Assembly (NCBI GenBank): GCA_030833925.1
Contig: JAURGE010000001.1
Span: 79,535 to 143,534 of the forward strand
Direction: 5' to 3'
From: Alphaproteobacteria bacterium
Lineage (GTDB): Bacteria > Pseudomonadota > Alphaproteobacteria > Bin95
DNA length: 64,000 nucleotides
Shown here: in pieces, positions 8,863-64,000 of the stretch
Position numbering within the stretch: the first letter of the stretch is position 1
Layout: each line of letters opens with the position of its first letter
The notes under the pieces: model-generated
Databases searched by the model: none
What the model was told of the DNA's origin: nothing
Seen by the model: only the letters and a program-made list of their open reading frames with translations
Translations under genes and position numbers: made by a program

Positions 8863-9594
8863 CTACCGCTTTGAAGCGGAGCGCCGAAATGCAGCGATTC
8901 TCTCCTTGATCCCAGGTACACTGACTGATCGGGCTAAGGCCGCCATGTCCGCGTCGCGAGTGTCTGGTCGAGTTACATCTGCGAGAGCCCTTGTGACGGT
9001 TGGCGATAGTCGACTATAGGCTTCTGTAAAATTATTGATAATGGGTTCCCAATACTCGAGATCTACAATTTGGTCGATTAAGCCAAGTTTTTCAGCCTCT
9101 TCGGTTGCAAGTGACCTATTCTCAATCTGGACTTGTCGAGCAGCAACGTTTCCTATTCTGTATGCTAAACGGCGCGTGCCAAGCACTACACCAAACCGGG
9201 GACCAGGCATTTGAAATTTTGCAGCAGGCGCGGCAACAACTCGCATAGCCGCCGCTGCAAGATCGGCACCTGCTCCAACTGCTTGGCCTTGCACTAAAGC
9301 CATTATTGGCATTGGCGCATGGAATACAGTTTGCAACATTTCTTCGACTTGTATGAATCTTAGGACTAGGTCGCCATCAGTTAGATTATCAAAGTCGCCA
9401 AAATCGAAGCCCGCACAGAAATGTTTTCCACTTCCACGGAGGATAATGACGCGCGATCCGTTTGCTGAGGCATCATTGATCGCCAGTTTAATGCCATCAG
9501 CCATATCTGCCGAAAGCGCATTCGCCTTTTCTGGTCGATTGAGGGTGATAATGGTCGCCTTGTCACGAGCATCTACAAGAACAGCGTCCTTCAT
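8863..9594 (-). CDS. enoyl-CoA hydratase/isomerase (crotonase) family protein
   Basis: Crotonase-fold motifs present (FCAGFD, GQAVGAGADLAAAA). Confidence 0.75.
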   Translation of the reverse strand: MKDAVLVDARDKATIITLNRPEKANALSADMADGIKLAINDASANGSRVIILRGSGKHFCAGFDFGDFDNLTDGDLVLRFIQVEEMLQTVFHAPMPIMALVQGQAVGAGADLAAAAMRVVAAPAAKFQMPGPRFGVVLGTRRLAYRIGNVAARQVQIENRSLATEEAEKLGLIDQIVDLEYWEPIINNFTEAYSRLSPTVTRALADVTRPDTRDADMAALARSVSVPGIKERIAAFRRSASKR

Positions 9595-12323: not shown

Positions 12324-13871
12324 TTACCCCCGAATACCATGAAGATAGGGACCAGCTTCCCTAAGGGGAGCCGCTGTATTGGCGAAGTCGACTAGATATT
12401 TCCTGGTCTCTCGTGGATCAATAATTTCCTCAATCCAGAACGACTCTGCTGAACGGAAAGGTGACCGTAACTTTTCCAATCTCTCTTCAATTTCGGTCAG
12501 CTTAGCTGCGGGATCAGTAGCATCATCAATATCTGCTCGATAAGCGGCCTCAATTCCCCCCTCAAGCGGCAGAGAGCCCCATCGGCCTGAAGGCCAAGCG
12601 TATCGCATATTAAATCGAGACCCATTTTGGTGGGCTGCACCTGCAACACCAAAACAGTTTCTGACTATTACCGAGCACCATGGGATGGTTGTCTGCCATA
12701 TGGCAGCCATCGCTCGAGTACCTTCTTTGATAGTACCTGACTTTTCACTTTCCAACCCAATCAGGAAGCCAGGGCAATCAACCAGATATATCATTGGGAG
12801 ATGAAAGGTCTGAGCCATATCCACGAACCGCTCTACCTTACGACAAGCATCGGCCGTCCAACCACCGCCGAAGTGATATGGATCACTTGCCATCACTGCA
12901 ACTGGCCACCCGTCAACACGCGCAAGGCCCGTGATTATCGACCGGCCATACATTTTGCCCATCTCAAAGAAGGATCCCTGGTCAACTACTGATTCCACAA
13001 TTGGTCGCATTTTGTAGACCTTACGGATATCTCTTGGGATCGCCTCGATAAGGGATGCGTCATTCCGATCGGGGGAGTCGGAGCTTTGGATTCGCTCAGG
13101 CAGCTCGTAGACGTTTTGTGGTAAATAAGACAGAAAACGGCGGGCCATTTCAAAAGCCTCTTCTTCGGAATCTACCGCTTCGTCAACTGCACCAGCACGC
13201 AGTTGAATTTTCCAACCACCTAGCTGTTGCTTGTCCAAGTCCTGACCTAAACGTTTCACAACTGGTGGCCCCGCAACAAATAGAGCGGATATATCCTTCA
13301 CCATGACTGAATAATGTGCCGCTGCTTGGTGAGCTGCACCAAGGCCAGCAACCGACCCTAATCCAAGGGATACGCGTGGTATTGTACCCATATTGCGCAC
13401 CACCCATTCCCATCCGGAAACACCCGGAACATTGGCCCGGCCTGTAGTCTCGATTGTTTTGACCGAGCCGCCCCCACCTGAGCCTTCCACAATCCTGATC
13501 AAAGGTAACCGGAGTTCATTGGCCATTTGCTCGCACTTTATGTGCTTCTCTTTGATGGTCGCATCTGCTGAGCCGCCGCGGACGGTGAAATCATCCCCAC
13601 CAATCACTACTTGGCGACCGTTTACTCGCCCTCTCCCAAAAACAAAATTGGAGGGAGTGAAATGCTCGAGATCGTTTTTCCCGTCATACTGAGCCATACC
13701 CGCAACTTTTCCGAGTTCATGAAAAGAGCCAGGGTCCAGCATGGCATCGATCCGCTCTCTGACAGTAAGCCTGCCACCATCTTTCTGCCGCTTTATCTTG
13801 TCGGCTCCTCCCATCATCTCCGCGAAATCTTCGCGACGCTTTAATTCATCAAGTTCAGTCTGCCATGACAT
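12324..13871 (-). CDS. acyl-CoA carboxylase carboxyltransferase (beta) subunit family protein
   Basis: 515 aa with both N- and C-terminal carboxyltransferase domains, resembling propionyl-CoA / methylcrotonyl-CoA carboxylase beta chains. No biotin carboxylase or BCCP gene is nearby. Confidence 0.8.
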   Translation of the reverse strand: MSWQTELDELKRREDFAEMMGGADKIKRQKDGGRLTVRERIDAMLDPGSFHELGKVAGMAQYDGKNDLEHFTPSNFVFGRGRVNGRQVVIGGDDFTVRGGSADATIKEKHIKCEQMANELRLPLIRIVEGSGGGGSVKTIETTGRANVPGVSGWEWVVRNMGTIPRVSLGLGSVAGLGAAHQAAAHYSVMVKDISALFVAGPPVVKRLGQDLDKQQLGGWKIQLRAGAVDEAVDSEEEAFEMARRFLSYLPQNVYELPERIQSSDSPDRNDASLIEAIPRDIRKVYKMRPIVESVVDQGSFFEMGKMYGRSIITGLARVDGWPVAVMASDPYHFGGGWTADACRKVERFVDMAQTFHLPMIYLVDCPGFLIGLESEKSGTIKEGTRAMAAIWQTTIPWCSVIVRNCFGVAGAAHQNGSRFNMRYAWPSGRWGSLPLEGGIEAAYRADIDDATDPAAKLTEIEERLEKLRSPFRSAESFWIEEIIDPRETRKYLVDFANTAAPLREAGPYLHGIRG

Positions 13872-14052: not shown

Positions 14053-14811
14053 TTAGGGATTGCGTAATGACGGCAACCCGACTCCTACGGCGTCAAATCC
14101 ACCATCTGCAGCCAGGATTTGGCCGGTGATGTAAGAGGCTTTATCGCTCGCAAGAAACACAATTGCCTCAGCAATTTCTCGCTCAGTACCGTAGCGATTC
14201 AGTGGAATTGCATCGTGATAAGCGTCAATAATATCTTGCGTGTGAACCTGTTTTGACATTGCAGTAGCAACAGGGCCTGGGGCGACACAATTTACACGTA
14301 CGCCGTATTCCCCAAGCTCTGCTGCTTGCTGTTTCGTTAAGTGGATTACAGCAGCTTTCGAAGTCCCGTAAGCAACTCTTAGGGTAGATGCCCGAAGCCC
14401 AGAAATTGATCCTATGTTTACTATTGAGCCTCGTGTTTCTTTCAAATATGGAATAGATGCCTGGGCGCAGAGGAAAACCCCATCAAGGTTTGTCTCCATA
14501 ACGCGCCGCCAGCGAGTAAAATCATGCTCCTCTAACGGCCCAAAGTCGGCAACTCCGGCATTATTGACGAGGCAATCGATTCGACCGAAAGACCTAATGG
14601 CCTCTGTCATGATACGGCCCGCATCTTGAGGGTTGGAAACATCGGCCGTTATAGCACTCACATGCGTTAGCTTAGACGCTTCGGCGTCAAGCAGCGCTTC
14701 GAGCCGGTCGACCATTACAACGCTCCAGCCATCAGCAAGAAATAAATCTGTTGTGGTGCGGCCTATTCCTCTTGCGGCGCCTGTAACTATTGCAACTTTT
14801 CTAAATTTCAT
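14053..14811 (-). CDS. SDR family oxidoreductase
   Basis: N-terminal TGAARGIG dinucleotide-binding motif and a catalytic YxxxK (YGTSK). Confidence 0.8.
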   Translation of the reverse strand: MKFRKVAIVTGAARGIGRTTTDLFLADGWSVVMVDRLEALLDAEASKLTHVSAITADVSNPQDAGRIMTEAIRSFGRIDCLVNNAGVADFGPLEEHDFTRWRRVMETNLDGVFLCAQASIPYLKETRGSIVNIGSISGLRASTLRVAYGTSKAAVIHLTKQQAAELGEYGVRVNCVAPGPVATAMSKQVHTQDIIDAYHDAIPLNRYGTEREIAEAIVFLASDKASYITGQILAADGGFDAVGVGLPSLRNP

Positions 14812-16160
14812 GGTTTGGCGATGTCCGTGATTTCGGAGACGTCATCGAGTTCTGCAATTTTCCAGCTCAAGGACGATACTGATTCTGCTTTGTTTCTCGG
14901 CAAAACAAGCTCGGCTTGATCCATAAATTTCTTCTCAAGTGCCTCGATCGACATAGGTTGCTTGAGACTTCCTATGCCATGCTCTATCCGTCGATGGTGG
15001 ATCCTACCGTCAGTCATCTCGATCGTGACATCCGCTCCATCGCGATTAACGCCATTGTCAGCCTGAACGACTATCTTACGTCGAGTCGCTACAACCATTG
15101 GGTTAGCTACCGCATCTTCCGTACCTTCAGAGATGCCAGCAGACTTCATAACGAGAGCTGCAGCTGTCCAATGCTGGAGGCTAACCTGAGCGAGTTGGGC
15201 GTTCGGAGGCTCAGGTCTATCTGTCAGTGTTAGACAAAGGGGGTTTAACCGTAGCCGAATTGCGTTCACTTTTTCCGCATTGAAAGAGGGATCGGCTGCG
15301 ATTTCCAGGCAGGCATCAAGGATTGGATGGATAACAATACCGCATGGATAAGGCTTTGGCATATTTTCCCGCATCTGCCACTTATCACCTAATTCATCTG
15401 TGACATGCTGCAGGTGAGCCTTTGGAGCAAAAACTTCACCAAAACCCTTTGGGCCTTCGAGCGTCGCCGCGGTTGCTGTCACTCCCTCTGCTGCCATTAG
15501 AGCGGCTATATATCCAGCTCGCGATGCTTGGCCGGGTAAAAGGCTAGTGCACATAGACCCATGAGTTTGGCGGAAACCCATCGCCGCGGCAGCTCCAAGT
15601 CCCAGTGCATGCAGCGTCACTTCTTCATTAAATTGCAGTAGGTTAGCCATTGCTGCTGCGGCACCGATAGGGGTCGCTACGCTCGACATGTACCATCCAA
15701 CCTGGGTCTCCGCTGGGGGAACAGTGAGTGCCATGGCAATTCGGCAGGCGACCTCTACGCCAACCGTGAAGGCCGCATGGAGATCTCGGCCCGATGTCAC
15801 CCTTCGTTCTGCTTCAGCCATCAATGGAGCTGCTATTGGACCAGCAGGATGGAGAACGGTCGCGAGGTGAGTGTCATCGAATGCATGGGCTGCTGAAGCT
15901 TGTGCGTTCACCAAAACAGCGTCTGGTGCAGATAGCTTCTCATTTCGACCAAGCAGCGATGTCTTCACCCCTCCGGCAAACGGTAAAACAGTTTTAAATG
16001 TTCGCACTGTTGCATCATGGGTCATCCCACCCAGGGTGCAGCCGATAAAATTGTAGAACTGTTGTGTAGCGTCTTCGCATACTTCATTGGGTAGGTCCGC
16101 AGCCCGGACGTTGGCAACAAAGTTGGCTAACACTTGGGTGGTTTCAATCATTAATTTCAA
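14808..16160 (-). CDS. MmgE/PrpD family protein (2-methylcitrate dehydratase-like)
   Basis: 450 aa with an MmgE/PrpD-like sequence throughout. It overlaps the neighbouring genes by 4 nt on both sides, which suggests one operon. Confidence 0.7.
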   Translation of the reverse strand: MKLMIETTQVLANFVANVRAADLPNEVCEDATQQFYNFIGCTLGGMTHDATVRTFKTVLPFAGGVKTSLLGRNEKLSAPDAVLVNAQASAAHAFDDTHLATVLHPAGPIAAPLMAEAERRVTSGRDLHAAFTVGVEVACRIAMALTVPPAETQVGWYMSSVATPIGAAAAMANLLQFNEEVTLHALGLGAAAAMGFRQTHGSMCTSLLPGQASRAGYIAALMAAEGVTATAATLEGPKGFGEVFAPKAHLQHVTDELGDKWQMRENMPKPYPCGIVIHPILDACLEIAADPSFNAEKVNAIRLRLNPLCLTLTDRPEPPNAQLAQVSLQHWTAAALVMKSAGISEGTEDAVANPMVVATRRKIVVQADNGVNRDGADVTIEMTDGRIHHRRIEHGIGSLKQPMSIEALEKKFMDQAELVLPRNKAESVSSLSWKIAELDDVSEITDIAKP

Positions 16161-17457: not shown

Positions 17458-18534
17458 ATGGCAAATATTATAAAGATACCAGCGGATGTCGTTCGTAGTC
17501 AGCTTGAAGCGGTGTTTCAGGCCTGGGGTATGCCGAAGGAAAACATAGCAACAACTGTGGATGTTATGGTTGCGACTGACCTTTCAGGCGTTGATAGCCA
17601 TGGTCTTGGCATGTTGCCAGGTTATCACCAAAGGCGTGGCCGCGGCATGATCAAAGATCAGCCAGATATTCGTGTGGTGCGAGATAAGCCAGCTGCCGCC
17701 CTGATAGATGCTGATCGTAGCCTTGGCCATCCACCGTCTGTTATGGCGATGAAACTTGCAATGGAGAAAGCTCGAGCCATGGGAGTGGGTATAGTTTCTG
17801 TTAGAAACTCAAACCATTTTGGAGCAGCGGGCTATTACAGCCGAATGGCCGCCGAGGCAGGTATTGTTGGTATGGCTATGACCAACGCGCCAACCCCTGC
17901 CATGGTACCTACGTTCGGTCGTGATCCGGTTCTTGGCACCAATCCGATTGCCTTTGCTGCCCCAGCCGAAAAGAATCCTCCTTTCAGCTTAGATATGGCA
18001 ACCACAACAGTTGCTGTAGGTAAGCTCAACATAGCTCGTAGGCTTGGAAAGGCCATTCCCAATGGCTGGGCACTAAACACCGATGGCGAGGTGGAAACAG
18101 ATGGTGCAGCTGCTTTCGCCGCCCGACGCTTGACACCCTTAGGTGGAGACCGGGAGCGAGGTAGTCACAAGGGCTATGGGTTGGCGACGATGGTTGAAAT
18201 TCTTTGTGCAACCTTATCTGGTTCTTGGTCAGATGGGCCAGGCCCAGATGGTAAGCCGCAGCGCACTAAGACGAATGTTGGTCACTTCTTCTTAGCGATA
18301 GATCCTTCTAAGGTACGAGCAGATGGGGAATTCGAGGCCGATCTCGACCGAATGATAGATATGCTTCACGCAACCCCACCGGTAGATCCAGAAAATCCTG
18401 TGCAGGTTGCGGGTGATCCAGAAGTTCTGGCTACAGCAACACGTTTGGTAGACGGTATACCAATTGCTGACACTCTCATTGAAGAAGTCCGTAAGGTGGC
18501 AGTCGAGTCGAATGCCCCCTTCCTGCTTGCCTAA
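17458..18534 (+). CDS. Ldh_2 family (malate/L-lactate/sulfolactate dehydrogenase type 2) oxidoreductase
   Basis: Ldh_2 motifs present (DSHGLGMLPGY, NSNHFGAAGYY, GTNPIAFAAP). Confidence 0.75.
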   Translation: MANIIKIPADVVRSQLEAVFQAWGMPKENIATTVDVMVATDLSGVDSHGLGMLPGYHQRRGRGMIKDQPDIRVVRDKPAAALIDADRSLGHPPSVMAMKLAMEKARAMGVGIVSVRNSNHFGAAGYYSRMAAEAGIVGMAMTNAPTPAMVPTFGRDPVLGTNPIAFAAPAEKNPPFSLDMATTTVAVGKLNIARRLGKAIPNGWALNTDGEVETDGAAAFAARRLTPLGGDRERGSHKGYGLATMVEILCATLSGSWSDGPGPDGKPQRTKTNVGHFFLAIDPSKVRADGEFEADLDRMIDMLHATPPVDPENPVQVAGDPEVLATATRLVDGIPIADTLIEEVRKVAVESNAPFLLA

Positions 18535-25435: not shown

Positions 25436-26590
25436 CTAGATGCTTAAGTCATCTTTGTTATAGTCCCATATGTCAGCGCGGGCCGCGTCGTCCCATCTGT
25501 ATACCAGCCCGTCCTGAAGGTGTGGCGTGTATTGATAGGGCGTTTCATCAGGGAATCGCTGACGGCGCGCATCGATTGCATAGCCCAGCATTCGTGCCCT
25601 GCGCGTGATACGCTCTCCGGTATAAACCGCACGAGCGTTGTGGAGGCCACCCGCCTCGATATTCAATACCGATGACCGACGGTGAAAGCCCATGTTTACG
25701 GTAACTCTCCAGTCTTTGCTGGTATTAGCGAAGCTGCCATGGATTGCTTGCCGATTTGTCATTGCTACATCACCGGGAGCGCAAATAATTGGAACGGCAT
25801 CAGGAAGGCGGTCCGAGCCTGCCTTTGCAGCCATCGCTGGAATATCAACGTGGCGCTTCTTGTGGCTACCTGGCACAACCCAAACCCCATTTGCCGCCGT
25901 GCACCCGTAAACCTGGCCCATAAAATTGAAACCATGCACACCTTCATCCCACTTAGGTGAGTCATAGTGGGTCAACCCATCCCGATGCCAAGCAACTGAA
26001 GCACCAAGGCCTGGTGCTTTGATAAACAAACCCTCATTAAAGGGAGTGAAATCTTCGCCGTTTATGGCCGCAGCGATACGAAGCAAATCTGGGTGGCCAT
26101 AGGCGCGCAGACAAGCATCCGAATATTGAAGCGAGCCAATAATGAGATAAACTACTTCTTCAGGCACACCTTTTTCTGGCGTGGGTTCGTGCATTTTTAC
26201 TGGATGGCGCCCCCCGGCCAAGTTGGTTCCCCCAAAAGGGTCTGCTAAAGGCTTTGACCAGAAAAAGTTTCTTCCACCCTGCTCGACCCCCATAGCTAAC
26301 TCGCCTCTGGAGTCCAAATTTGCCCCTTGTGCCACTGGCAGTCTTGTTTGGATGAGATGAACGTCTTCCTCTAGGTCTTTGATTTCTTCGGGGCGGAGCA
26401 CATTCTGGAAAACATAGAACCCAACGCGCCAGTAAGCTTCAATAATTTCGGGATGCAACTCACCTGTTTCCGTAAACCGCACAGGACCCCGGTTGCCAAG
26501 CTCCATAGCGCGCGCTTCACCCTCCGTCAGATATTCCTGAAAGGCTACTTCATCATCTTTAGGGGTCTTGGTGGAGGTTTTAAGCATCAA
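25436..26590 (-). CDS. phytanoyl-CoA dioxygenase (PhyH) family Fe(II)/2OG oxygenase
   Basis: HxD iron-binding motif (WHRDG) plus a distal His. At 384 aa it is larger than typical PhyH proteins. Confidence 0.6.
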   Translation of the reverse strand: MMLKTSTKTPKDDEVAFQEYLTEGEARAMELGNRGPVRFTETGELHPEIIEAYWRVGFYVFQNVLRPEEIKDLEEDVHLIQTRLPVAQGANLDSRGELAMGVEQGGRNFFWSKPLADPFGGTNLAGGRHPVKMHEPTPEKGVPEEVVYLIIGSLQYSDACLRAYGHPDLLRIAAAINGEDFTPFNEGLFIKAPGLGASVAWHRDGLTHYDSPKWDEGVHGFNFMGQVYGCTAANGVWVVPGSHKKRHVDIPAMAAKAGSDRLPDAVPIICAPGDVAMTNRQAIHGSFANTSKDWRVTVNMGFHRRSSVLNIEAGGLHNARAVYTGERITRRARMLGYAIDARRQRFPDETPYQYTPHLQDGLVYRWDDAARADIWDYNKDDLSI

Positions 26591-55132: not shown

Positions 55133-55221
55133 GGCTGGTTAACCACTTTTGGCAGACAGCATTAATTTTTATGTGCTCACAATTTTTGATTTTAACCGAT
55201 TTCAATAGCAGAGAGGAATTT

Positions 55222-55626
55222 ATGATGGACACTTCCAAATATAACGCCAATGAGGCTTTTCTTGCTGGTTTGAAGGTTAGAGAAGAGGTGCTTGGTTCAG
55301 AGTACGTTGGGAAATCAGTTGAGAATGGAGCAAAGGACGAATTCACACGAACTTTGCAGCAGTTCGTTACTGAAACAGCCTGGGGTACTGTTTGGTTGCG
55401 TGAAGGCCTTGACCGAAAAACTCGCAGTATGCTCAACCTTGCTATGCTTGCCGCAATGGGCCGCGAAGGTGAACTTCGTTTACACACCCGTGGCGCGATA
55501 AATAATGGCTGTTCCAAAGAAGAAATTGCGGAAGTATTTCTCCAGGCTGCGGTCTATGCCGGTGCGCCATCAGCCGTTACCGCTTTCAAGGTAGCCAAAG
55601 AAGTTTTTGACGATATGGGCGTCTAA
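55222..55626 (+). CDS. carboxymuconolactone decarboxylase (CMD) family protein
   Basis: CMD-fold sequence. The start is set at the ATG 5 nt after a GAGAGG ribosome-binding site; the longest ORF would start at 55171. Confidence 0.65.
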   Translation: MMDTSKYNANEAFLAGLKVREEVLGSEYVGKSVENGAKDEFTRTLQQFVTETAWGTVWLREGLDRKTRSMLNLAMLAAMGREGELRLHTRGAINNGCSKEEIAEVFLQAAVYAGAPSAVTAFKVAKEVFDDMGV

Positions 55627-55635
55627 TTAGAGTAG

Positions 55636-55657
55636 CCGGTTCCGACCGGGTATTTTT
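55636..55657 (+). terminator. rho-independent terminator candidate after the CMD gene
   Basis: Hairpin CCGGT-TCCG-ACCGG followed by GTATTTTTGG. Confidence 0.45.
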
Positions 55658-55661
55658 GGCT

Positions 55662-55690
55662 AAAGGGTCAACGAGCTGAGTTGACCCTTT
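55662..55690. repeat. perfect 11-bp inverted repeat AAAGGGTCAAC-N7-GTTGACCCTTT between convergent genes (bidirectional terminator or protein-binding palindrome)
   Basis: Read directly in the sequence. Confidence 0.5.
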
Positions 55691-55773
55691 AGCTATAATT
55701 GTTTTGCTGATTGGGGGCCTAAAGTTGAATCCCCTTTAAAACAGCGTTTTGACTAAGGGGCGCCCAATGGCCG

Positions 55774-56937
55774 TTACTGGTGTTTTTTTAGCATTCGACG
55801 AGCAATGACCATCCTGTGCACTTCGGTTGGGCCCTCGTAGATGCGCGATAGGCGAAGCCTTTGGGACATAATTGCGAAGGGGAGTTCACGGGTCATTCCC
55901 ATTGCACCAAAACTTTGCATCGCGTGGTCAACCACCTCGGTAGCCATTTCAGTAGCAAAAACCTTGATCATAGATGCTTCAGTTCGAACGTCTGCCCCGG
56001 CCTCTTGCTTTGCGGCGGCGTCCATCACCATTAGGCGAGTGGCGTGAATTTTAGTTGCTGCGTCAGCAATCCACCATTGAATGGCTTGTCGGTCTGAGAG
56101 TTTCTGTCCGAAAGTTTCGCGCTGCTGCACGTGTTCACACATCATTTTTAATGCGCGCTCTGCCATACCGACGCCCATTGCCCCCATTTCCAGGCGCCGA
56201 ACTGTCAAGCGTTTTTGCATTGGAGCGAAGCCATTACCAACCTCACCCAATATTGACGAATCTGGCAAACGAACGTCATCGAATACCAATTCGTAAGTTC
56301 GCGCACCCGCAAGCATTGGAATTTCACGCTCAATGGAAAACCCTGGGGTATCGGTATCCATGATGAAGGCAGTTATGCCGCCACGAGCCCCTTTTGAAGA
56401 ATCCGTCGCTGCCATTACAATGAGAAAATCGGCCTTAGGAACGCCAGAGACCCAGATCTTACGGCCATTTATTACCCAATCATCGCCATCTTTAACTGCC
56501 CTGGTTTTCATATGTGCAGGATCACCGCCTGCGCCTGGCTCGGAGATTGCAATATTGGACTTTAACTTTCCTTGGGCGTACGGCTCCATGTACTGCTTCT
56601 TCTGCTCAGGCGATCCTACGGCCATAAGCATGTGCAGGTTTGGGCTGTCAGGAGGAAATATGAAGGGGGTTACAGTGCTTTTCAGCTTCTCTTGAATGGC
56701 AAGCATGACGGAAGTGCGGATATTTGATCCACCAACCTCCTCAGGCGCATCAAGAGCCCAAAGGCCAAGCTCCTTACACTTTGCTAGAAGTGGCTCTGCC
56801 TCCTCTGGAAGCAGGGCTACCTCGCCCCCCTTTGCTTCTCGGGCCATCACAGCTTTTTCGAGGGGCATCAGCTCATTGTCGACAAATTTGTCAACCAGAT
56901 CGAGCAACATCCGTTCTTCTTCGGCGAACTCCATCAT
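55774..56937 (-). CDS. acyl-CoA dehydrogenase (canonical catalytic Glu present)
   Basis: ACAD fold with a C-terminal IYEGPTEV motif, which corresponds to the MCAD Glu376-type catalytic base. Confidence 0.85.
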   Translation of the reverse strand: MMEFAEEERMLLDLVDKFVDNELMPLEKAVMAREAKGGEVALLPEEAEPLLAKCKELGLWALDAPEEVGGSNIRTSVMLAIQEKLKSTVTPFIFPPDSPNLHMLMAVGSPEQKKQYMEPYAQGKLKSNIAISEPGAGGDPAHMKTRAVKDGDDWVINGRKIWVSGVPKADFLIVMAATDSSKGARGGITAFIMDTDTPGFSIEREIPMLAGARTYELVFDDVRLPDSSILGEVGNGFAPMQKRLTVRRLEMGAMGVGMAERALKMMCEHVQQRETFGQKLSDRQAIQWWIADAATKIHATRLMVMDAAAKQEAGADVRTEASMIKVFATEMATEVVDHAMQSFGAMGMTRELPFAIMSQRLRLSRIYEGPTEVHRMVIARRMLKKHQ

Positions 56938-56949
56938 TAACTCAGGTCC

Positions 56950-57870
56950 TTATTCGAGGGGTAATCCGGGATGCATGGCTCGGCTATCGCCCATATTGAC
57001 GAAACCTGTCTGCAAGGCTGGCATGCCGTTTTCAGCTATTGTTTCAGGGGTCCAGCCGTGATTGCGATGTACCATTCTGACAGGTCTCATCGCACCGTAA
57101 AGCGTTAACTCCGCTCCACGCTGATGAAAAACTTGACCGTTTACATAAGAGGCGCCTTCTGAAGCTAAGAAAACACATAGAGGTGCGATCGCGTCAGCGG
57201 GGCTTAAACGAAGTCGCTCCTCCCGAATACGCGCTGCATCGGGATCTTTTGGTGTTGGAACTGATCGGGTCATGCGTGTATCAGCTGAAGGCAGAATAGC
57301 GTTTGAGGTTATTCCTCTATTAGCATTTTCCATGGCGACAATGCGCGTCAAAGCGACGATGCCCATTTTGGCGGAACCGTAGTTTGCCTGTCCAATGTTT
57401 CCAAGTACGCCAGATGTGGAAGAGACCATAATCATTCGACCATATTCTTGCTCTCTGAAAAGGTTAATGGCGGCGCGATTGATGTTGAAGTGTCCGTTAA
57501 GATGAACGTTGATTACATCCTTCCAGTCTTCAGGGGACATCTTGTGGAACATGCGATCACGCAGAATCCCAGCTGGATTGAAGACTACATGACAGCCGCC
57601 TAGCTCGTCGCGCGCCTGTTCAACCATCCCTAGACAATCTTCGAAAGATGTGACCGATCCAAAGTTAGCAACTGCCTCCCCACCAGCAGCCTTGATTTCA
57701 TCCACGATTGACTGAGCCGGCGTCGTATCTCCGCCCTCACCACCTCCGCCGACGCCTGGATCATTTACAAGCACTTTTGCCCCATTTGCGGCCATTAACT
57801 TCGCCACTTCTGCACCCACTCCGCGGCCAGATCCCGTGCAGATTGCTACTTTTCCTTCGAGCATGCCCAT
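56950..57870 (-). CDS. SDR family 3-hydroxyacyl-CoA dehydrogenase-like protein (Hsd4A / 17-beta-HSD4 N-domain-like)
   Basis: 306 aa with TGSGRGVG and YGSAK motifs. It has an extended C-terminus relative to classical SDRs. Confidence 0.65.
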   Translation of the reverse strand: MGMLEGKVAICTGSGRGVGAEVAKLMAANGAKVLVNDPGVGGGGEGGDTTPAQSIVDEIKAAGGEAVANFGSVTSFEDCLGMVEQARDELGGCHVVFNPAGILRDRMFHKMSPEDWKDVINVHLNGHFNINRAAINLFREQEYGRMIMVSSTSGVLGNIGQANYGSAKMGIVALTRIVAMENANRGITSNAILPSADTRMTRSVPTPKDPDAARIREERLRLSPADAIAPLCVFLASEGASYVNGQVFHQRGAELTLYGAMRPVRMVHRNHGWTPETIAENGMPALQTGFVNMGDSRAMHPGLPLE

Positions 57871-58155
57871 TGGTAATTTCCTGCTTAAATTTTGTTTCTG
57901 TGCTCAGTGTCAGTCCGGGACTGGTTTTGGTCAACTTATTGGCACAGTTACATCTATTCTTTCGAAAAGAATTTTATTTTTACGACCTTAAGGCTGGTGC
58001 CAACGAATTAATTTTTGGGCTAACTAAACCTCAGGTTTCTATCAAAAATTAGCTGATAGACATTCTTCAATCCTTGCATAAGTGCAAACTTTCTTGCAGC
58101 TTCTTCCTTTGGTTCGATCAAATAAACAATCCTTTCGATCAGGATGTGACATCGC

Positions 58156-59277
58156 ATGAAATTTAGTTTTTCAGAGGAACAAGAAGAGTTCCGAACGGCT
58201 CTGCGGCGCTTTTTGCAGGCAAAATCTCCAACAACGGAAGTTCGTAAGCAGATGCAGACCGAACAAGGCTACGATCCGGCTGTTTGGCAGCAGATGTGTA
58301 ATGAGTTAGCACTGGCTTCTCTTCATATCCCCGAAGAATATGGTGGTGCTGGTTTCGGCATCGCGGATCTCTCCATCGCCTGCGAGGAGATGGGGCGAGC
58401 CCTGCTGTGTTCGCCCTATTTTGGTTCCGTTGTGTTGGCTGCAACCGCAATACGAGAGGCCGGTTCCGAAGATCAGAGACGCCAGTTTTTGCCTGCCTTT
58501 GCTGCAGGCGAAACTATTGGCGCTCTCTGCGTAGTCGAAGGCCGTGGCGGTTGGGCAGCAGAGGCAATCTCAATGGTTGCTCAAAAGGATGGCAATAGCT
58601 ACCGGCTGTCCGGTGACAAGAGCCATGTAGTCGATGGATTGATGGCGAGCGTTTTAGTTGTGGTCGCGAAAAAGCCAGATGGGGAGCTAGGTTTATTCAT
58701 CGTGAAAGCGGAAGCTGATGGCGTGTCGCGTAAGGCTCAAGCTTCGATGGATCCAACTCGCAAACTCGCTGCTGTTTCGTTTTCCAATACGCCCGCTGAA
58801 TTGCTTAATGGCGATAATGCTAGTGGGGCCTATGAACGTACTCTTGATATCGCCTTGGCTTGCCTAGCGGGAGAAATGGTTGGTGGGGCAGAGCGGCTTC
58901 GTGAGGACGCGCTAGAATACGTTTCCATGCGGATGCAATTTGGTCGTTCGATAGCATCATTCCAAGTTACCAAACACAAAGCAGCTGATATGCTCTTGGA
59001 TGTGGAACTTGCAAAATCTGCTGCCTATTACGCGGCGGCTGCGGTTGACGAGGGAGATGCTGACGCCCGTGGGGTGGTCGCATTGGCAAAGGCTGGTGCC
59101 TCTGATGCTTATATTCAAACAGCTGTTCACGCTGTCCAGATGCATGGTGGCATAGGGTTTACCTTTGATAATGATACCCATCTTTGGTTTAAACGCGCGA
59201 AGGCAAGTGAAGTATTTCTAGGCGACGCAAACCAGAACCGGGAACGAATGCTGCAAAACTGGGGTGACGATTCATGA
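58156..59277 (+). CDS. acyl-CoA dehydrogenase family protein (lacks the canonical YEG Glu)
   Basis: ACAD fold. The MCAD-type YEG position reads VFLGDANQ (Glu replaced by Leu) by eye alignment. Its stop overlaps the next ACAD start (ATGA). Confidence 0.8.
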   Translation: MKFSFSEEQEEFRTALRRFLQAKSPTTEVRKQMQTEQGYDPAVWQQMCNELALASLHIPEEYGGAGFGIADLSIACEEMGRALLCSPYFGSVVLAATAIREAGSEDQRRQFLPAFAAGETIGALCVVEGRGGWAAEAISMVAQKDGNSYRLSGDKSHVVDGLMASVLVVVAKKPDGELGLFIVKAEADGVSRKAQASMDPTRKLAAVSFSNTPAELLNGDNASGAYERTLDIALACLAGEMVGGAERLREDALEYVSMRMQFGRSIASFQVTKHKAADMLLDVELAKSAAYYAAAAVDEGDADARGVVALAKAGASDAYIQTAVHAVQMHGGIGFTFDNDTHLWFKRAKASEVFLGDANQNRERMLQNWGDDS

Positions 59278-60530
59278 CTACTATGACTGAGGACGAAGTT
59301 CGCTCCCAGGTCCGCGATTATTTGGAAGCAAATTGGGATCCCAATCGTGGCCTTGTTGAATGGCGCGGCATGCTTGCTGAGTCTGGGTGGGGAATGCCGC
59401 ACTGGCCAAAGGAATGGCTAGGCCGTGGTTTGCCACTTGGGATGACGGCAATTGTGGATGAAGAATTTAATAAGTTCGGTGCGATAGGGGCTGCAAAAAT
59501 GGGCATACGCGTGCTTGCAGCAGCAACTATCCTGGAGCACGGCACAGATCTGCAAAAACAAAAATATCTCAAAGGTATAATGACTGGTGAGGAAACTTGG
59601 TGTCAGCTGTTTTCAGAGCCGGGGTCGGGTTCTGATCTAGCTGGTGCTGCAACCAGAGCCGACTTTAAGGACGGTAAGTGGATCATTAATGGACAGAAGG
59701 TATGGACGACAAGTGCCCATCATGCTGACTATGCGCTCTTGCTTGCCAGAACTGATTGGGATGCCGTCAAGCACAAAGGTCTAAGCTATTTCATTCTCGA
59801 CATGCATCAGCCGGGTGTCCAAGTGCATCAGCTAAAACAGATGAATGGGCATGCATCCTTCAATCAAGTTTTCATCACAGACGCCGCGATAGAAGCAAAC
59901 ATGCAGGTGGGCGAACTCGGTGAAGGCTGGAAAGTTGCAACTACAACCTTGATGAATGAGCGTCGAGGAGCCGACTCTGCCCGTCGCTATGAAAGTGGGA
60001 CAGATAGGCCAGAGCGAATTTACGAGGAAGAGCGTCAAGAAATAGCTACAGTCATGGCGCCTTACACCTGGTATCCTCAACGCACCGGCCGGGTGGATTT
60101 GTTGATTGACCAAGCGAAAGCTATGGGGGTGTGGAATGACCCCGACATTCGTCAAGAAATTGCCAAAACACTAACTATTGCTAAGTCTGCTGAGTGGACG
60201 GCCAGACGAGCCCGTGCAGCATCACAGGCTGGGAAACCTCAGGGACCAGAAGGCTCCATCGGCAAGCTTGCGGCTTCAATTGTCGCTCGCTCAGCAAACT
60301 TAACCCACACTAAAATAGCAGGCCCAAACGCTATGCTAACCGGTGAAGAGGATGGGGCTGGCGGCGTGGTAGCGGAAATCTTGGTATCCACACCAGCTAT
60401 TTCTATCGCTGGCGGCACTGACGAAATTCAGCGAAATATCATTTCAGAGCGAATACTCAAAATGCCCAAGGAAAACCGGACAGATACTGACCGTCCCTTC
60501 CGTGACGTTCCCCGAAATCAAGTCGGATGA
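59274..60530 (+). CDS. acyl-CoA dehydrogenase family protein (lacks the canonical YEG Glu)
   Basis: ACAD fold. The YEG position reads IAGGTDEIQRNII (Glu replaced by Gly). It is translationally coupled to the upstream ACAD. Confidence 0.8.
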   Translation: MTTMTEDEVRSQVRDYLEANWDPNRGLVEWRGMLAESGWGMPHWPKEWLGRGLPLGMTAIVDEEFNKFGAIGAAKMGIRVLAAATILEHGTDLQKQKYLKGIMTGEETWCQLFSEPGSGSDLAGAATRADFKDGKWIINGQKVWTTSAHHADYALLLARTDWDAVKHKGLSYFILDMHQPGVQVHQLKQMNGHASFNQVFITDAAIEANMQVGELGEGWKVATTTLMNERRGADSARRYESGTDRPERIYEEERQEIATVMAPYTWYPQRTGRVDLLIDQAKAMGVWNDPDIRQEIAKTLTIAKSAEWTARRARAASQAGKPQGPEGSIGKLAASIVARSANLTHTKIAGPNAMLTGEEDGAGGVVAEILVSTPAISIAGGTDEIQRNIISERILKMPKENRTDTDRPFRDVPRNQVG

Positions 60531-60558
60531 GACCTAAAGAAACTGCAGGATATTTAGA

Positions 60559-62664
60559 ATGAGCGAAAAGGATCTAGTCCGTTTCGAGAGGCACGGAGAA
60601 ATTGGCGTAGTCGTTGTCGATAACCCGCCAGTCAATGCGTTATCTCCCGGTGTGCCGGAAGGTATCGTGAAGCATATCGATGCTGGGGCTGCTGACCCAA
60701 CCATCAAGGCATTGGTGGTTATTGGAGCAGGCAGGAGCTTCATTGCCGGAGCTGATATAAGGCAATTTGGTAAGGGGCGCCCTCCTTTAGCTCGTAAGCC
60801 CTATGATGCCTATGAAGAGTCACCCAAACCAATCGTTGCGGCTATACATGGATATGCCCTTGGCGGTGGTTTGGAGAATGCTCTTGCTTGCCATTACCGG
60901 ATTGCTGTTGCATCGGCCAAAGTGGGGCTTCCAGAGGTACTGATTGGCCTGCTTCCGGGTGGTGGTGGTACTCAGCGCCTGCCCCGGTTGATTGGGCCAA
61001 AAGCAGCTCTTGATCTCATCGTTTCAGGGCGCCATGTACCGGCGCCAGAGGCACTTGAGTTGGGCATCTTAGATAGGGTTATCCCGTCTGATGATGATCT
61101 CAAAATAGAAGCCGTAAAGTTTGCCAGTGAGATTGCTGATAAGCGGCCACTTCAACTGATTCGCGATAGAGAAGCCAAACTTCCTGAGGGCGAGGACATC
61201 TTTGAAGCGAAGAAAAAAGAAATTGCTCGACGTGCTCGCAACCAGATAGCGCCTTACAATAACATCAAGGCCGTCCAAGCAGCTGTGGAAATGCAATTTG
61301 AAGATGGCTTAAGGCGAGAGCGCGAACTCTTCGAAGAACTTGTAAGTTCGGACGAATCTAGAGCACTTCGCTATGCTTTTTTTGCCGAGCGAGAGGCGCA
61401 GAAGCTCCCGGATGTTCCGAAGGGAACCCCTGTAAAAACGATCAAAACTGCTGCTGTTGTTGGAGCTGGTACCATGGGCGGGGGCATCGCAATGTGCTTC
61501 GCTGATGCGGGTATCCCTGTTCAAGTTTTGGAGGTTTCTGAAGACGCACTAGTCAAAGGTTTCCAACGCATTCGCAATAATTATGAGGTCAGCGTCAAGC
61601 GTGGATCTTTAGATGCTGATGAGATGGAGGCTCGTTTTGCCTTGATTTCTAGGGCAACAGCCTATGAAGAGATATCAGAAGCCGATGTAGTGATTGAGGC
61701 AGTATTCGAGGAGATGGGCGTCAAGCAGCAGGTTTTCAAAGAAATAGATCGGGTCATGAAGTCAGACGCGCTGCTTTTAACTAACACCTCAGCTTTAGAT
61801 ATTGATCAAATTGCTGAAGCTACCTCACGTCCAGAAAAGGTTGGTGGGGCTCACTTTTTTAGTCCAGCTAACGTTATGAAACTGCTTGAAGTGGTTAAGG
61901 GCAAGAAGACCACTCCTGAAGTCACGGCATCTACTATGGCTCTGGGGAAGTTGATAGCGAAGGCTCCAGCTGCGTGCGGCAATTGTGATGGCTTTCTAGC
62001 TAATCGCAGCCGCGCACCGTTCAATTCCGAAATGGTCATTATGCTTGAGGAAGGCTGTCTACCTGAGCAAGTTGATAAAGTTATGGTCGAATTTGGTTAC
62101 CCAATGGGGCCATTCGCGGTTGGGGATTTAGCTGGACTGGACATAGGCTATGCTGGTCGCAAAAGACGAGCAGAAGCTGATCCCAATTACCGAACTTTAC
62201 CCATCGCTGACAAATTAGTGGAGATGGGGCGCCTTGGTCAGAAGACTGGAGCTGGTTGGTTCAAATACGAAAAAGGTGATCGCACTCCATATCCTGATCC
62301 AATCGTGACGGATCTCATAATCAGCATGTCAAAAGAAATGGGTAATGAGCCACGCAGTTTCACGGACGACGAAATTCTTAAGCGATTATTATTTTCCTCT
62401 GTAAATGAGGCATGCAAAATATTGGAGGAAAAAATATCCTACAGGGCCTCTGATGTGGACATTATGTGGCTCTATGGATTTGGGTTTCCACGTTATCGCG
62501 GTGGCCTGATGTACTGGGCCGACAGCATAGGTGTTCAGGATGTCTATAATCAGATTGCTGCTTGGCACCAGGCCTATGGCAATCGGTGGGCGCCATCGAA
62601 CTTGTTGCGTCAGTTGGCTGACTCAAACACATCATTCCGAGAAGCCCATACATTAGTAAATTAG
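60559..62664 (+). CDS. bifunctional enoyl-CoA hydratase / 3-hydroxyacyl-CoA dehydrogenase (FadB/FadJ-like)
   Basis: 701 aa with an N-terminal crotonase domain and a C-terminal NAD-binding 3HCDH domain (VVGAGTMGGGIA). Confidence 0.85.
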   Translation: MSEKDLVRFERHGEIGVVVVDNPPVNALSPGVPEGIVKHIDAGAADPTIKALVVIGAGRSFIAGADIRQFGKGRPPLARKPYDAYEESPKPIVAAIHGYALGGGLENALACHYRIAVASAKVGLPEVLIGLLPGGGGTQRLPRLIGPKAALDLIVSGRHVPAPEALELGILDRVIPSDDDLKIEAVKFASEIADKRPLQLIRDREAKLPEGEDIFEAKKKEIARRARNQIAPYNNIKAVQAAVEMQFEDGLRRERELFEELVSSDESRALRYAFFAEREAQKLPDVPKGTPVKTIKTAAVVGAGTMGGGIAMCFADAGIPVQVLEVSEDALVKGFQRIRNNYEVSVKRGSLDADEMEARFALISRATAYEEISEADVVIEAVFEEMGVKQQVFKEIDRVMKSDALLLTNTSALDIDQIAEATSRPEKVGGAHFFSPANVMKLLEVVKGKKTTPEVTASTMALGKLIAKAPAACGNCDGFLANRSRAPFNSEMVIMLEEGCLPEQVDKVMVEFGYPMGPFAVGDLAGLDIGYAGRKRRAEADPNYRTLPIADKLVEMGRLGQKTGAGWFKYEKGDRTPYPDPIVTDLIISMSKEMGNEPRSFTDDEILKRLLFSSVNEACKILEEKISYRASDVDIMWLYGFGFPRYRGGLMYWADSIGVQDVYNQIAAWHQAYGNRWAPSNLLRQLADSNTSFREAHTLVN

Positions 62665-62670
62665 GAACTG

Positions 62671-63396
62671 GTGATGACAAAACATGTGCTAGTCACAGGT
62701 GCGTCGAGGAATATTGGAAAAGCGATTTCCTCGCGGCTAAAAAATGATGGCTACGATATTCTTATGCTGGACATCATAGAGCCCGAAGACGCCTCTTTGG
62801 GCGAATTCCGGAAGGTTGATCTTTCAAATTCTGCGGATGTCTCACAAGCGATGGCATGGGCACTGGATGGAAGGGAAATTACGAGGGTTGTTAATTGTGC
62901 GGGCCTTGTTGCTACCCACGATTTGGAAGAGGCTGATGCAGCAACGTTTGATCGACTGATGTCGGTTAACGTCCGTTCATATATTGAAATTACTAGTGCC
63001 CTCGTACCTGGAATGAAAAAAGCAGGTTTTGGCAGGATCGTAAATATAGCTAGCCGTTCGGCCTTGGGCGCTGCAAGGCAGACAATATATTCTGCGACCA
63101 AGGCCGCCGTTGTGGGTATTACTAAGACCTGGGCAGAAGAATTAGGGTCTTACGGCATTACATCTAACGCTATTGGACCTGGTCCAATTGAAACCGACAT
63201 GCTCAAGGAAGTGTATGGAGAGGGGTCTCCAGCATGGGAGGCTTACAGGAAGCGAATTCCAGTACAGCGCTTTGGAACACCTAACGACATTGCCAATGGT
63301 GTTGCATTCCTCATCGATGATCGCTCTAGCTTCGTGACAGGACAGGTGCTGTTTATTTGTGGTGGGGTGACCATTGGGCGTGCTAACGCCACCTGA
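62671..63396 (+). CDS. SDR family oxidoreductase
   Basis: TGASRNIG motif and a catalytic YSATK. Confidence 0.8.
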   Translation: MMTKHVLVTGASRNIGKAISSRLKNDGYDILMLDIIEPEDASLGEFRKVDLSNSADVSQAMAWALDGREITRVVNCAGLVATHDLEEADAATFDRLMSVNVRSYIEITSALVPGMKKAGFGRIVNIASRSALGAARQTIYSATKAAVVGITKTWAEELGSYGITSNAIGPGPIETDMLKEVYGEGSPAWEAYRKRIPVQRFGTPNDIANGVAFLIDDRSSFVTGQVLFICGGVTIGRANAT

Positions 63397-63408
63397 GATT
63401 GGTTGGGT

Positions 63409-64000
63409 TCAGCTTTTATTAGAAGAATTAGCCCTAGCTTCCTCGATAGCCGAACGAAGTTGTTGAAGCGGAACTGCGCCGGGAATAATTTTGTCGCCTA
63501 TAATAAACGCTGGCGTGCCGCGGATATTTAATGCCTCAGCAATTGCGCGAGCATTCTGGATTTGAGAGTTCAGGGATTTATCGGTCATTGCAGCCTGAAT
63601 CTTTGAGGGATCGTAGCCAGCATCTGCTGCAATTGCCAGTAATGTTGCCTCGTCGTAGGGGCCCTGATGTTGCATTAGACGATCGTGTAAATCACCGTAT
63701 TTATCAGGATTTACCATGTTCGAGGCCAACGAAATAATGGACGCTGTCAATGAATCTGGGCCTAGAATTGGGAATTCCTTCATCACGATACGGAGTTTTT
63801 TGTCAGACTTAGCCAATTCCATAACACTTGGAAGTACCCGCTTACAGTAGCCACAACGGTAATCAAAAAATTCCACAAGGGTGACGTCGGCTTCTGCGGC
63901 GGTAGCGCCGAGAGAGGGATCATTTGATTGGTTAAGCAAGGCATCTTTAAGACTGCGTAAGGTATTTACCCGCTCAACTTCCGCAATCTTCGCCTGGTTT
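63409..64000 (-). CDS. DsbA-family thiol:disulfide oxidoreductase (N-terminus lies beyond the window end)
   Basis: CGYC active site inside a thioredoxin fold. The listed ORF starts at a TTG, but the frame stays open upstream to nt 64000 and no signal peptide is yet visible, so the gene is truncated by the window. Confidence 0.7.
   Translation of the reverse strand, partial: NQAKIAEVERVNTLRSLKDALLNQSNDPSLGATAAEADVTLVEFFDYRCGYCKRVLPSVMELAKSDKKLRIVMKEFPILGPDSLTASIISLASNMVNPDKYGDLHDRLMQHQGPYDEATLLAIAADAGYDPSKIQAAMTDKSLNSQIQNARAIAEALNIRGTPAFIIGDKIIPGAVPLQQLRSAIEEARANSSNKS

Follow-up and report, generated by a model that had tools for sequence, protein, structure and literature searches.

An overlapping pair of acyl-CoA dehydrogenase genes that probably encodes the two subunits of one heteromeric enzyme

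Can two adjoining acyl-CoA dehydrogenase (ACAD) genes that both lack the glutamate of the YEG motif still encode a working enzyme? A locus in the genome of an Alphaproteobacteria bacterium (GTDB lineage Bacteria; Pseudomonadota; Alphaproteobacteria; Bin95) raises this question. The stretch analyzed, here called the window, is 64,000 nucleotides long (GenBank assembly GCA_030833925.1, contig JAURGE010000001.1, positions 79,535 to 143,534 of the forward strand) and is numbered from its first nucleotide. It contains two overlapping ACAD genes, P1 and P2, that a first-pass annotation had proposed to encode a heteromeric ACAD. We consider it highly probable, judging from their sequences, that P1 is the beta subunit and P2 the alpha subunit of one flavin adenine dinucleotide (FAD)-dependent ACAD of the alpha2beta2 type. 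The proposal is supported by a catalytic glutamate in only one subunit, complementary FAD motifs, matches to alpha and beta chains in the PDB, conserved pairing, and gene fusions.

58156..59277, + strand: P1, 373 amino acids, proposed non-catalytic beta (small) subunit of a heteromeric ACAD
59274..60530, + strand: P2, 418 amino acids, proposed catalytic alpha (large) subunit
59274..59277, + strand: ATGA stop/start overlap of P1 and P2, read from the sequence; translational coupling
55774..56937, - strand: third ACAD, canonical homomeric type with IYEG, from the open reading frame (ORF) list, Pfam, and alignment with solved ACADs

The catalytic glutamate of the pair

In the raw sequence, the ATG of P2 (59274-59276) and the TGA of P1 (59275-59277) overlap by 4 nucleotides, so the overlap that had been claimed for these genes is seen both in the ORF coordinates and in the ATGA itself. 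The start codon of P1 agrees with the N termini of its orthologues (MKFSFSEEQ), and a P2 start at the overlap gives an N-terminal length equal to that of the P2 orthologues. A Pfam search found the N-terminal, middle, and C-terminal ACAD domains in each protein, with the middle domain of P1 scoring 32.9 bits against a cutoff of 33.3. Annotation pipelines label proteins of both types alike as "acyl-CoA dehydrogenase family protein."

Catalytic positions were compared in a MAFFT alignment of seven sequences: P2, ChsE4, an isovaleryl-CoA dehydrogenase (IVD), the ACAD of PDB entry 5lnx, the third ACAD of the window, P1, and Tcur3481. Invariance refers to 14 members of the alpha clade for P2 and to 14 orthologues for P1. 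The following residues are concerned.

59218..59220, + strand: P1 Leu355 (CTA) at the YEG-Glu position, without a base (BLASTP, profile alignment, and MAFFT)
60408..60413, + strand: P2 Ala379-Gly380, with Gly380 in the YEG-Glu column (alignment)
58852..58854, + strand: P1 Ala233 at the helix-G Glu position, without a base (LDIALAC versus LDYERVV of IVD)
59958..59960, + strand: GAG codon of P2 Glu229, the predicted helix-G catalytic base (alignment with ChsE4 and IVD)

The first-pass annotation had assigned, by eye, a leucine of P1 and a glycine of P2 to the position of the YEG glutamate, and this assignment holds in BLASTP, profile, and MAFFT alignments. In P1, where residues 353-365 read VFLGDANQNRERM, Leu355 stands opposite the IYEG glutamate of the third ACAD by BLASTP and opposite that of the solved ACADs 5lnx and 4l1f by profile alignment; L355 and G356 are both invariant among the orthologues. 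The third ACAD had been said to keep IYEG, and its motif does align with the IYEG of solved ACADs. In P2, where residues 378-390 read IAGGTDEIQRNII, Gly380 shares the YEG-Glu column with 5lnx, the third ACAD, IVD, and ChsE4 in the MAFFT alignment and lies opposite the middle glycine of FGGG in ChsE4 and Tcur3483. That column holds glycine in P2, ChsE4, and Tcur3481 and leucine in P1.

At helix G, a glutamate is common to P2 (LMNERRG), ChsE4 (LNHERVA), and IVD (LDYERVV) in the same alignment. P2 Glu229 stands opposite the ChsE4 glutamate that is residue 247 in chain numbering; it is invariant in the clade, and a helix-G glutamate is present in 88/88 alpha-like sequences examined. The column holds alanine in P1 (LDIALAC) and in Tcur3481 (LDVARTA), and position 233 of the P1 orthologues is occupied by A, M, or S and in no case by E. 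Because of Ala233 at helix G and Leu355 at YEG, P1 is predicted to have no base at either position, and no glutamate was found in either column among the 14 P1 orthologues aligned. The earlier alternative, in which both proteins use a helix-G glutamate, stands for P2, with its invariant E229, but not for P1. On alignment, a catalytic glutamate in both proteins, the finding named beforehand as contrary to a heteromer, is not what appears; by these comparisons it is confined to one subunit, P2.

These residues also bear on a reading in which P1 and P2 are independent homotetrameric ACADs, each with its own helix-G glutamate. The full set of ACAD domains in both proteins would fit this, as would the predicted fold of P1, which resembles ordinary ACADs and beta subunits to about the same degree. 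However, P1 has Ala233 and Leu355, no orthologue has a glutamate at either site, the flavin-ring motifs of P1 are degenerate (see below), and its middle domain falls under the Pfam cutoff. We regard two independent homotetramers as very improbable indeed.

FAD motifs and solved relatives

Two motifs, one on the flavin-ring side and one in the C-terminal domain, are divided between the proteins.

59613..59636, + strand: P2 S114-D121, SEPGSGSD, flavin-ring-side motif kept in alpha and invariant in the clade
58930..58965, + strand: P1 R259-Q270, RMQFGRSIASFQ, C-terminal-domain motif kept in beta and lost in alpha

The SEPGSGSD of P2 stands opposite SEPGAGSD of IVD, SEPGAGTD of ChsE4, and SEPGAGGD of the third ACAD, and P2 also keeps the second flavin-ring motif, NGQKVWTTSA, at residues 139-148. 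At these sites P1 has the degenerate VEGRGGWA and KSHVVDG, and Tcur3481 is degenerate likewise in the MAFFT alignment. The middle-domain motifs SEPGxG(S/T)D and K-x-W-T are kept by P2 and ChsE4 and lost in P1 and Tcur3481. In the C-terminal domain, P1 RMQFGRSIASFQ stands opposite RKQFDQPIGEFQ of IVD, RVQFGRPIAANQ of 5lnx, and REQFGRPLGTFQ of Tcur3481, and both this motif and QMHGGIGF (Q328-F335) are invariant among the P1 orthologues. The patterns R-x-Q-F-G-R-x-(I/L)-x-x-F-Q and Q-x-H-G-G-I-G are kept by P1, Tcur3481, and the homomeric ACADs in the alignment. No equivalents of R-x-x-F-G...Q or Q..GG.G were found in P2 or ChsE4 among the seven aligned sequences. Thus, P1 and P2 appear to have lost complementary FAD-binding motifs.

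In ACAD structures, motifs of the RMQFG and QMHGGIGF types bind the ADP portion of the FAD that belongs to the partner subunit (PMC11153573). In both ChsE4-ChsE5 and ChsE1-ChsE2, it is the alpha subunit that has the catalytic glutamate and that binds the isoalloxazine and holds the substrate, with the beta subunit contacting the ADP-ribose (PMC11153573); heteromeric ACADs have one such glutamate and one FAD per heterodimer (PMC8399759). The division of labor between P1 and P2 agrees with that of these published alpha2beta2 enzymes, which supports the heteromeric reading.

We infer the subunit assembly, its FAD content, and the part played by E229 in catalysis as follows. P2 would hold the flavin ring and the acyl-CoA, and its Glu229, on helix G at the position used in IVD, LCAD (the long-chain acyl-CoA dehydrogenase), and ChsE4, would abstract the alpha-proton of the substrate in place of a YEG glutamate. 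P1 would have the ACAD fold without a catalytic base or a flavin-ring pocket of its own, and its C-terminal domain would clamp the ADP-ribose part of P2's FAD by the motifs that P2 has lost. Because P1 keeps the ADP-ribose motifs lost in P2, one FAD and one active site would be expected per alpha-beta dimer, and two per tetramer. The ATGA overlap would couple translation of the two genes, which would suit equimolar synthesis.

A rival explanation is that P2 is a self-sufficient homo-oligomer of the IVD/LCAD type and that P1 is a degenerate paralogue, either dispensable or similar to a chaperone or regulator. P2 does have the catalytic glutamate and the flavin-ring motifs that such an enzyme would need. 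IVD and LCAD are homotetrameric enzymes with a helix-G base (PMC11153573); P2 Glu229 matches the IVD glutamate, and the G-x-G(x10)ER spacing is equal. However, IVD and LCAD keep R-x-x-F-G...Q and Q..GG.G and have one FAD per subunit. P2, like ChsE4, is without these motifs, which are kept by every homomeric ACAD aligned, and it is exactly these that are kept, invariant, in P1. We consider a self-sufficient P2 improbable, and the conservation of the pair, described below, argues against it as well.

Solved relatives of the two proteins point the same way. Searched as a single sequence and as a family profile, P2 had as its three best PDB matches the two versions of Tcur3483 (wild type and the G363A variant) and ChsE4, with E-values of 4e-32 for Tcur3483 and 8e-28 for ChsE4. 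The best PDB sequence match of P1 was Tcur3481 (4.5e-37). An AlphaFold2 (AF2) model of P1 had a predicted local distance difference test score (pLDDT) of 83.8, and Foldseek matched it to Tcur3481 with a template modeling (TM) score of 0.88-0.92 and to ChsE5 with one of 0.89-0.91. Among the weaker P2 matches was PDB 8hk0, the two-chain ACAD-like Fic32-33 complex of Streptomyces ficellus. ACAD-fold monooxygenases of the SfnB/DszC type and AidB were rejected as assignments; their scores were marginal, and the catalytic glutamate and ACAD motifs are conserved.

The two-subunit ACAD design is already known from cholesterol-degrading bacteria, and the pair is an ordinary, uncharacterized member. The Thermomonospora curvata steroid ACAD Tcur3481-Tcur3483 (PDB 6WY8 and 6WY9) has two subunits with the same pattern of kept and lost motifs as P1-P2. 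However, P1 and P2 are only ~24-30% identical to these proteins and have no steroid gene context; compared with Tcur3483, P2 also has an added insert of ~45 residues after Glu229, an added C-terminal tail of 20 residues, and Ala379 in place of Gly363. ChsE4-ChsE5 (FadE26-FadE27 of Mycobacterium tuberculosis, PDB 4X28) is an alpha2beta2 ACAD in which the helix-G glutamate of ChsE4 matches P2 Glu229, with GGGT at the YEG site where P2 has AGGT. Identities to it are 27.6% for alpha and 26% for beta, and the substrate context differs. The order of the M. tuberculosis genes is alpha then beta, whereas in the window it is beta then alpha. ChsE5, the beta subunit, has a glutamate at neither position (PMC11153573), as is the case for P1.

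Two further segments of P2 set it apart from these relatives.

59973..60128, + strand: clade-specific insert of ~45 residues, P2 residues 234-285, directly after Glu229
60462..60518, + strand: C-terminal tail of P2, M397-N415, MPKENRTDTDRPFRDVPRN, invariant in the clade

The insert sits where ordinary ACADs have the R-x-x-F-G...Q FAD motif. It is present in the clade of the window gene and in Actinomycetota orthologues, absent from Bradyrhizobiaceae paralogues, and shorter in ChsE4. Its invariant residues are P263, Y264, W266, Y267, Q269, R270, G272, R273, D275, and L276, and the invariant pattern reads PYxWYPQRxGRxDL. The tail pattern GLPxEPxxDxxxPFxxxPxN is recognizable in most alpha-like homologues, from several phyla, and is absent from ChsE4 and Tcur3483, which end in GLPRANR and GMPRSRR, respectively. 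The AF2 model of P2 has a pLDDT of ~30 over the tail.

Conservation of the pairing and natural fusions

Loci were collected from a scan of one genome per species and from look-ups by protein. Twenty independent loci had an alpha orthologue with 54% identity or more; they belong to Alpha-, Beta-, and Gammaproteobacteria, Binataceae, Limisphaerales, and Acidobacteria. In each of the 20, alpha is immediately preceded on its own strand by a P1-like gene, so that the order is beta then alpha. The junctions range from a 4-nucleotide overlap to a 20-nucleotide gap (two of these estimates are approximate); the 4-nucleotide overlap recurs at loci L001, L005, L012, and L083, and the remaining orthologous loci have gaps of 1-20 nucleotides. 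The adjacency of P1 and P2 is not due to chance. Beta was less conserved than alpha at every locus (20/20), as would be expected of a non-catalytic partner.

The genes that flank the pair differ in 9/9 neighborhoods read and include CoA-transferase, HpaB-like, amidase, luciferase-like, AMP-ligase, PhyH, and housekeeping genes. Because the pairing is conserved and the flanks are not, the P1 and P2 genes seem to travel as a unit. This pairing across phyla in 20/20 loci amid varying flanks, together with the fusions described next, is further evidence against a self-sufficient P2.

Among 1.84 billion cluster representatives searched, 2,687 were relatives at an E-value of ≤1e-30; the best 150 were inspected. 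At least nine of these 150 have 727-797 amino acids and match alpha in their C-terminal half.

P0271, P0295, P0315, P0318, P0320, P0338, P0351, P0371, and P0383: fusion candidates with a beta-like N-terminal half and an alpha-like C-terminal half

Two of these have an N-terminal half that matches P1 over the full length (36% identity, 2e-59, and 32%, 3e-41). By these matches, natural beta-alpha fusions exist, with their halves ordered as P1 and P2 are in the window, and they are the strongest indirect support for P1 and P2 acting as one enzyme. CasC of Rhodococcus jostii RHA1 is a fused protein in which FAD binding requires the N-terminal ACAD domain and the C-terminal one carries the catalytic glutamate (PMC8399759). 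By this published description, its domain order is that of the fusions related to P1 and P2; P1 and P2 themselves differ from CasC as separate, translationally coupled genes.

Several points weigh against one heteromeric enzyme. By profile, P1 scored 178 bits to the homotetrameric 5lnx, 157 to Tcur3481, and 113 to ChsE5; because ordinary ACADs score higher, P1 is not specifically related to known beta subunits, and it looks like a generic ACAD stripped of its catalytic and flavin-ring residues, not close kin of the mycobacterial beta subunits. The AF2 model of P2, made from a 14-sequence alignment, had a pLDDT of 64.7, falling below 50 around residues 217-240 and 352-418; Tcur3483 and ChsE4 were its top Foldseek matches (TM of ~0.44), to which, with so poor a model, we gave no weight. 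Both AF2 models are of single chains and not of a complex. The roles given to ChsE4 Glu247 and Tcur3483 Gly363 are taken from reviews, PDB titles, and general knowledge. In addition, four P2 orthologues of Actinomycetota (L018-L021, from metagenome-assembled genomes [MAGs] of Acidimicrobiia/Actinomycetota) have no ACAD gene within 2.5-8 kb. They are 47-52% identical to P2, have the P2-type insert, and keep SIAGGT. With no linked ACAD gene, these alphas may act alone or with an unlinked partner, and as close orthologues without an adjoining ACAD gene they favor a self-sufficient P2. Given these points, we still find that P1 and P2 are most probably the subunits of one enzyme.

Relatives of P2 form >120 clusters (90% identity) at 68-94% identity, mostly from Alphaproteobacteria MAGs, and marine and soil metagenomes contain the P2 subfamily in abundance. 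Their P1 partners are at 59-70% identity, save for two clusters at 98% and 86%. The breadth of this uncharacterized, strongly conserved subfamily is the main interest of the pair. Tandem ACADs without the YEG glutamate need not be dead and can mark a division of labor between alpha and beta. The pair would extend heteromeric ACADs well past the steroid degraders, leaving the understanding of the enzyme class unchanged. A further beta-then-alpha pair, 38% identical to P2, was seen at L042, L054, and similar loci of Bradyrhizobium, Rhodopseudomonas, and Tardiphaga. In some alphas of these Bradyrhizobium-type pairs, a glutamate immediately precedes the YEG-Glu column (R[VI]EGGT).

Substrate and locus context

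The pair had been likened to the tandem ACADs of actinobacterial steroid side chain degradation, and we asked whether it could be an orthologue of ChsE4-ChsE5, ChsE1-ChsE2, IpdE1-IpdE2, or Scd, acting on a steroid side chain or ring fragment. The best PDB matches of both P1 and P2 are steroid ACADs, and the best NCBIfam match of P1, under the cutoff, is IpdE2. A neighboring short-chain dehydrogenase/reductase (SDR) matches PDB 7lg9, which we take to be ChsB1. However, P2 is only distantly similar to ChsE4 (27.6%), the IpdE2 score of P1 is 191.1 bits against an equivalog cutoff of 450, and no steroid-ring, ChsH, or Ltp2-type genes were found in the window or in eight other neighborhoods. IpdE1-IpdE2 itself is a heterotetrameric ACAD for a steroid ring C/D fragment (PMC8399759), and there is no HIP-degradation context at the pair.

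Residues around the YEG site and helix E also differ from those of the steroid enzymes. P2 has SIAGGT opposite FGGGT of ChsE4 and wild-type Tcur3483 and opposite FAGG of 6wy9, so that its clade-invariant Ala379 falls at the position of Tcur3483 Gly363. PDB 6wy9, by its title the G363A variant, scores slightly above the wild type against the P2 family profile. Gly363 of Tcur3483 is said, in the title of a paper, to be a key glycine. In addition, P2 K75 and G77 replace Pro89 and Pro91 of ChsE4, with AAAT for APT, although the alignment is less certain there. Those prolines, at the start of helix E, have been tied to an enlarged cavity (PMC11153573). Because of the lack of steroid genes, the low identity to ChsE4, the low IpdE2 score, Ala379, and K75/G77, the substrate of the pair is probably not a steroid. 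The steroid link implied earlier is not supported by the nine neighborhoods, by Ala379, or by the two ChsE4 prolines, which are not conserved; we think it quite improbable that the pair is a steroid ACAD.

A PimCD-type dehydrogenase of dicarboxylyl-CoA (pimeloyl-CoA and longer) is rather unlikely. PimC-PimD (TIGR03204/TIGR03203) and the PimCD-like pairs of Betaproteobacteria are likewise large and small ACADs of Proteobacteria with a non-steroid substrate, and growth on C8-C12 dicarboxylates depends on PimCD-like pairs (PMC12543098). The best NCBIfam match of P2 is pimC_large and the second best of P1, after IpdE2, is pimD_small, both under their cutoffs; the FadB-like gene and SDR downstream of the pair loosely recall a pim-type beta-oxidation module. 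However, the scores are less than one-third of the equivalog cutoffs (185.5 versus 623.85 bits for P2 with pimC_large and 174.7 versus 652.7 for P1 with pimD_small), the pimC match is limited to P2 residues 6-233, i.e., the N-terminal and middle domains, and no CoA ligase or thiolase gene adjoins the pair. The Bradyrhizobiaceae pairs, at 38% identity the nearest paralogues of P2, had also been considered as PimCD, a label that we dropped at 216-220 bits against a cutoff of 624.

Conserved neighbors were tried as a guide to the substrate and abandoned, as the flanks differ in all nine neighborhoods. We hold, with somewhat less than even confidence, that P1-P2 may represent an uncharacterized alpha2beta2 ACAD subfamily of Alpha-, Beta-, and Gammaproteobacteria, Binataceae, Verrucomicrobia, and Acidobacteria, a free-standing two-gene module for a common substrate other than a steroid or pimeloyl-CoA, in which the insert and tail of P2 replace part of the interface or FAD clamp. 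If true, this role of the insert and tail might explain the Actinomycetota alphas without a linked beta gene. Identification of the subfamily's substrate would fill in a further step of bacterial lipid or organic-acid catabolism.

The genes and intergenic region nearest to the pair are as follows.

60559..62664, + strand: FadJ/FadB-like enoyl-CoA hydratase/(3S)-3-hydroxyacyl-CoA dehydrogenase (Pfam ECH_1, 3HCDH_N, and 3HCDH)
62671..63396, + strand: SDR oxidoreductase (Pfam adh_short_C2; best NCBIfam match PRK07577, below the cutoff)
56950..57870, - strand: divergent SDR of the MFE-2/17beta-HSD4 type, (3R)-hydroxyacyl-CoA dehydrogenase (from its best PDB matches)
57871..58155, no strand: divergent intergenic region between two transcription units (from the ORF layout)

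The FadJ-like gene begins 28 nucleotides past P2 and scores 485 bits against the NCBIfam FadJ cutoff of 869, and the SDR begins 6 nucleotides past the FadJ-like gene. No terminator-like sites were found on the plus strand between 58156 and 63396, and P1, P2, the FadJ-like gene, and the SDR are a probable four-gene unit headed by the pair. Because a promoter and terminator scan of 55600-64000 gave no more sites than shuffled sequence, we assigned no promoter. The best PDB matches of the divergent SDR are 2et6 (2e-92), 1zbq, 3oml, and 1gz6, with 7lg9 also matched. Because the FadJ-like gene, the SDR, the MFE-2-type SDR, and the canonical ACAD share the locus, the pair would most likely catalyze the initial oxidation in a route that degrades a non-standard acyl-CoA by beta-oxidation. 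The MFE-2-type (3R) SDR and the FadJ-type (3S) enzyme occur in one locus, and the route may thus handle both 3-hydroxy stereochemistries.

The GC content is ~0.50 and flat over the window, with nothing to suggest recent acquisition. Elsewhere, the window holds housekeeping genes (Sdh, FtsH, TilS, Tol-Pal, Znu, and HisD) and scattered oxidoreductase, enoyl-CoA hydratase, carboxyltransferase, and PhyH-family genes. A hairpin whose stem is 16 bp long, with a T-rich tail after it (55657-55695), between a CMD-family gene (55171-55626) and the convergent third ACAD, is probably a bidirectional terminator. Genes of the PhyH (phytanoyl-CoA dioxygenase) family were seen at 25436-26590 (- strand) in the window, at 17550-18344 of locus L081, just past the window end, and near the pair in L089 too. 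Enoyl-CoA hydratase, carboxyltransferase, and MmgE/PrpD-family genes lie at 8863-9594, 12324-13871, and 14808-16160, respectively (all - strand), with several SDRs scattered among them over 8-22 kb. These genes indicate further organic-acid or acyl-CoA metabolism in other parts of the window.

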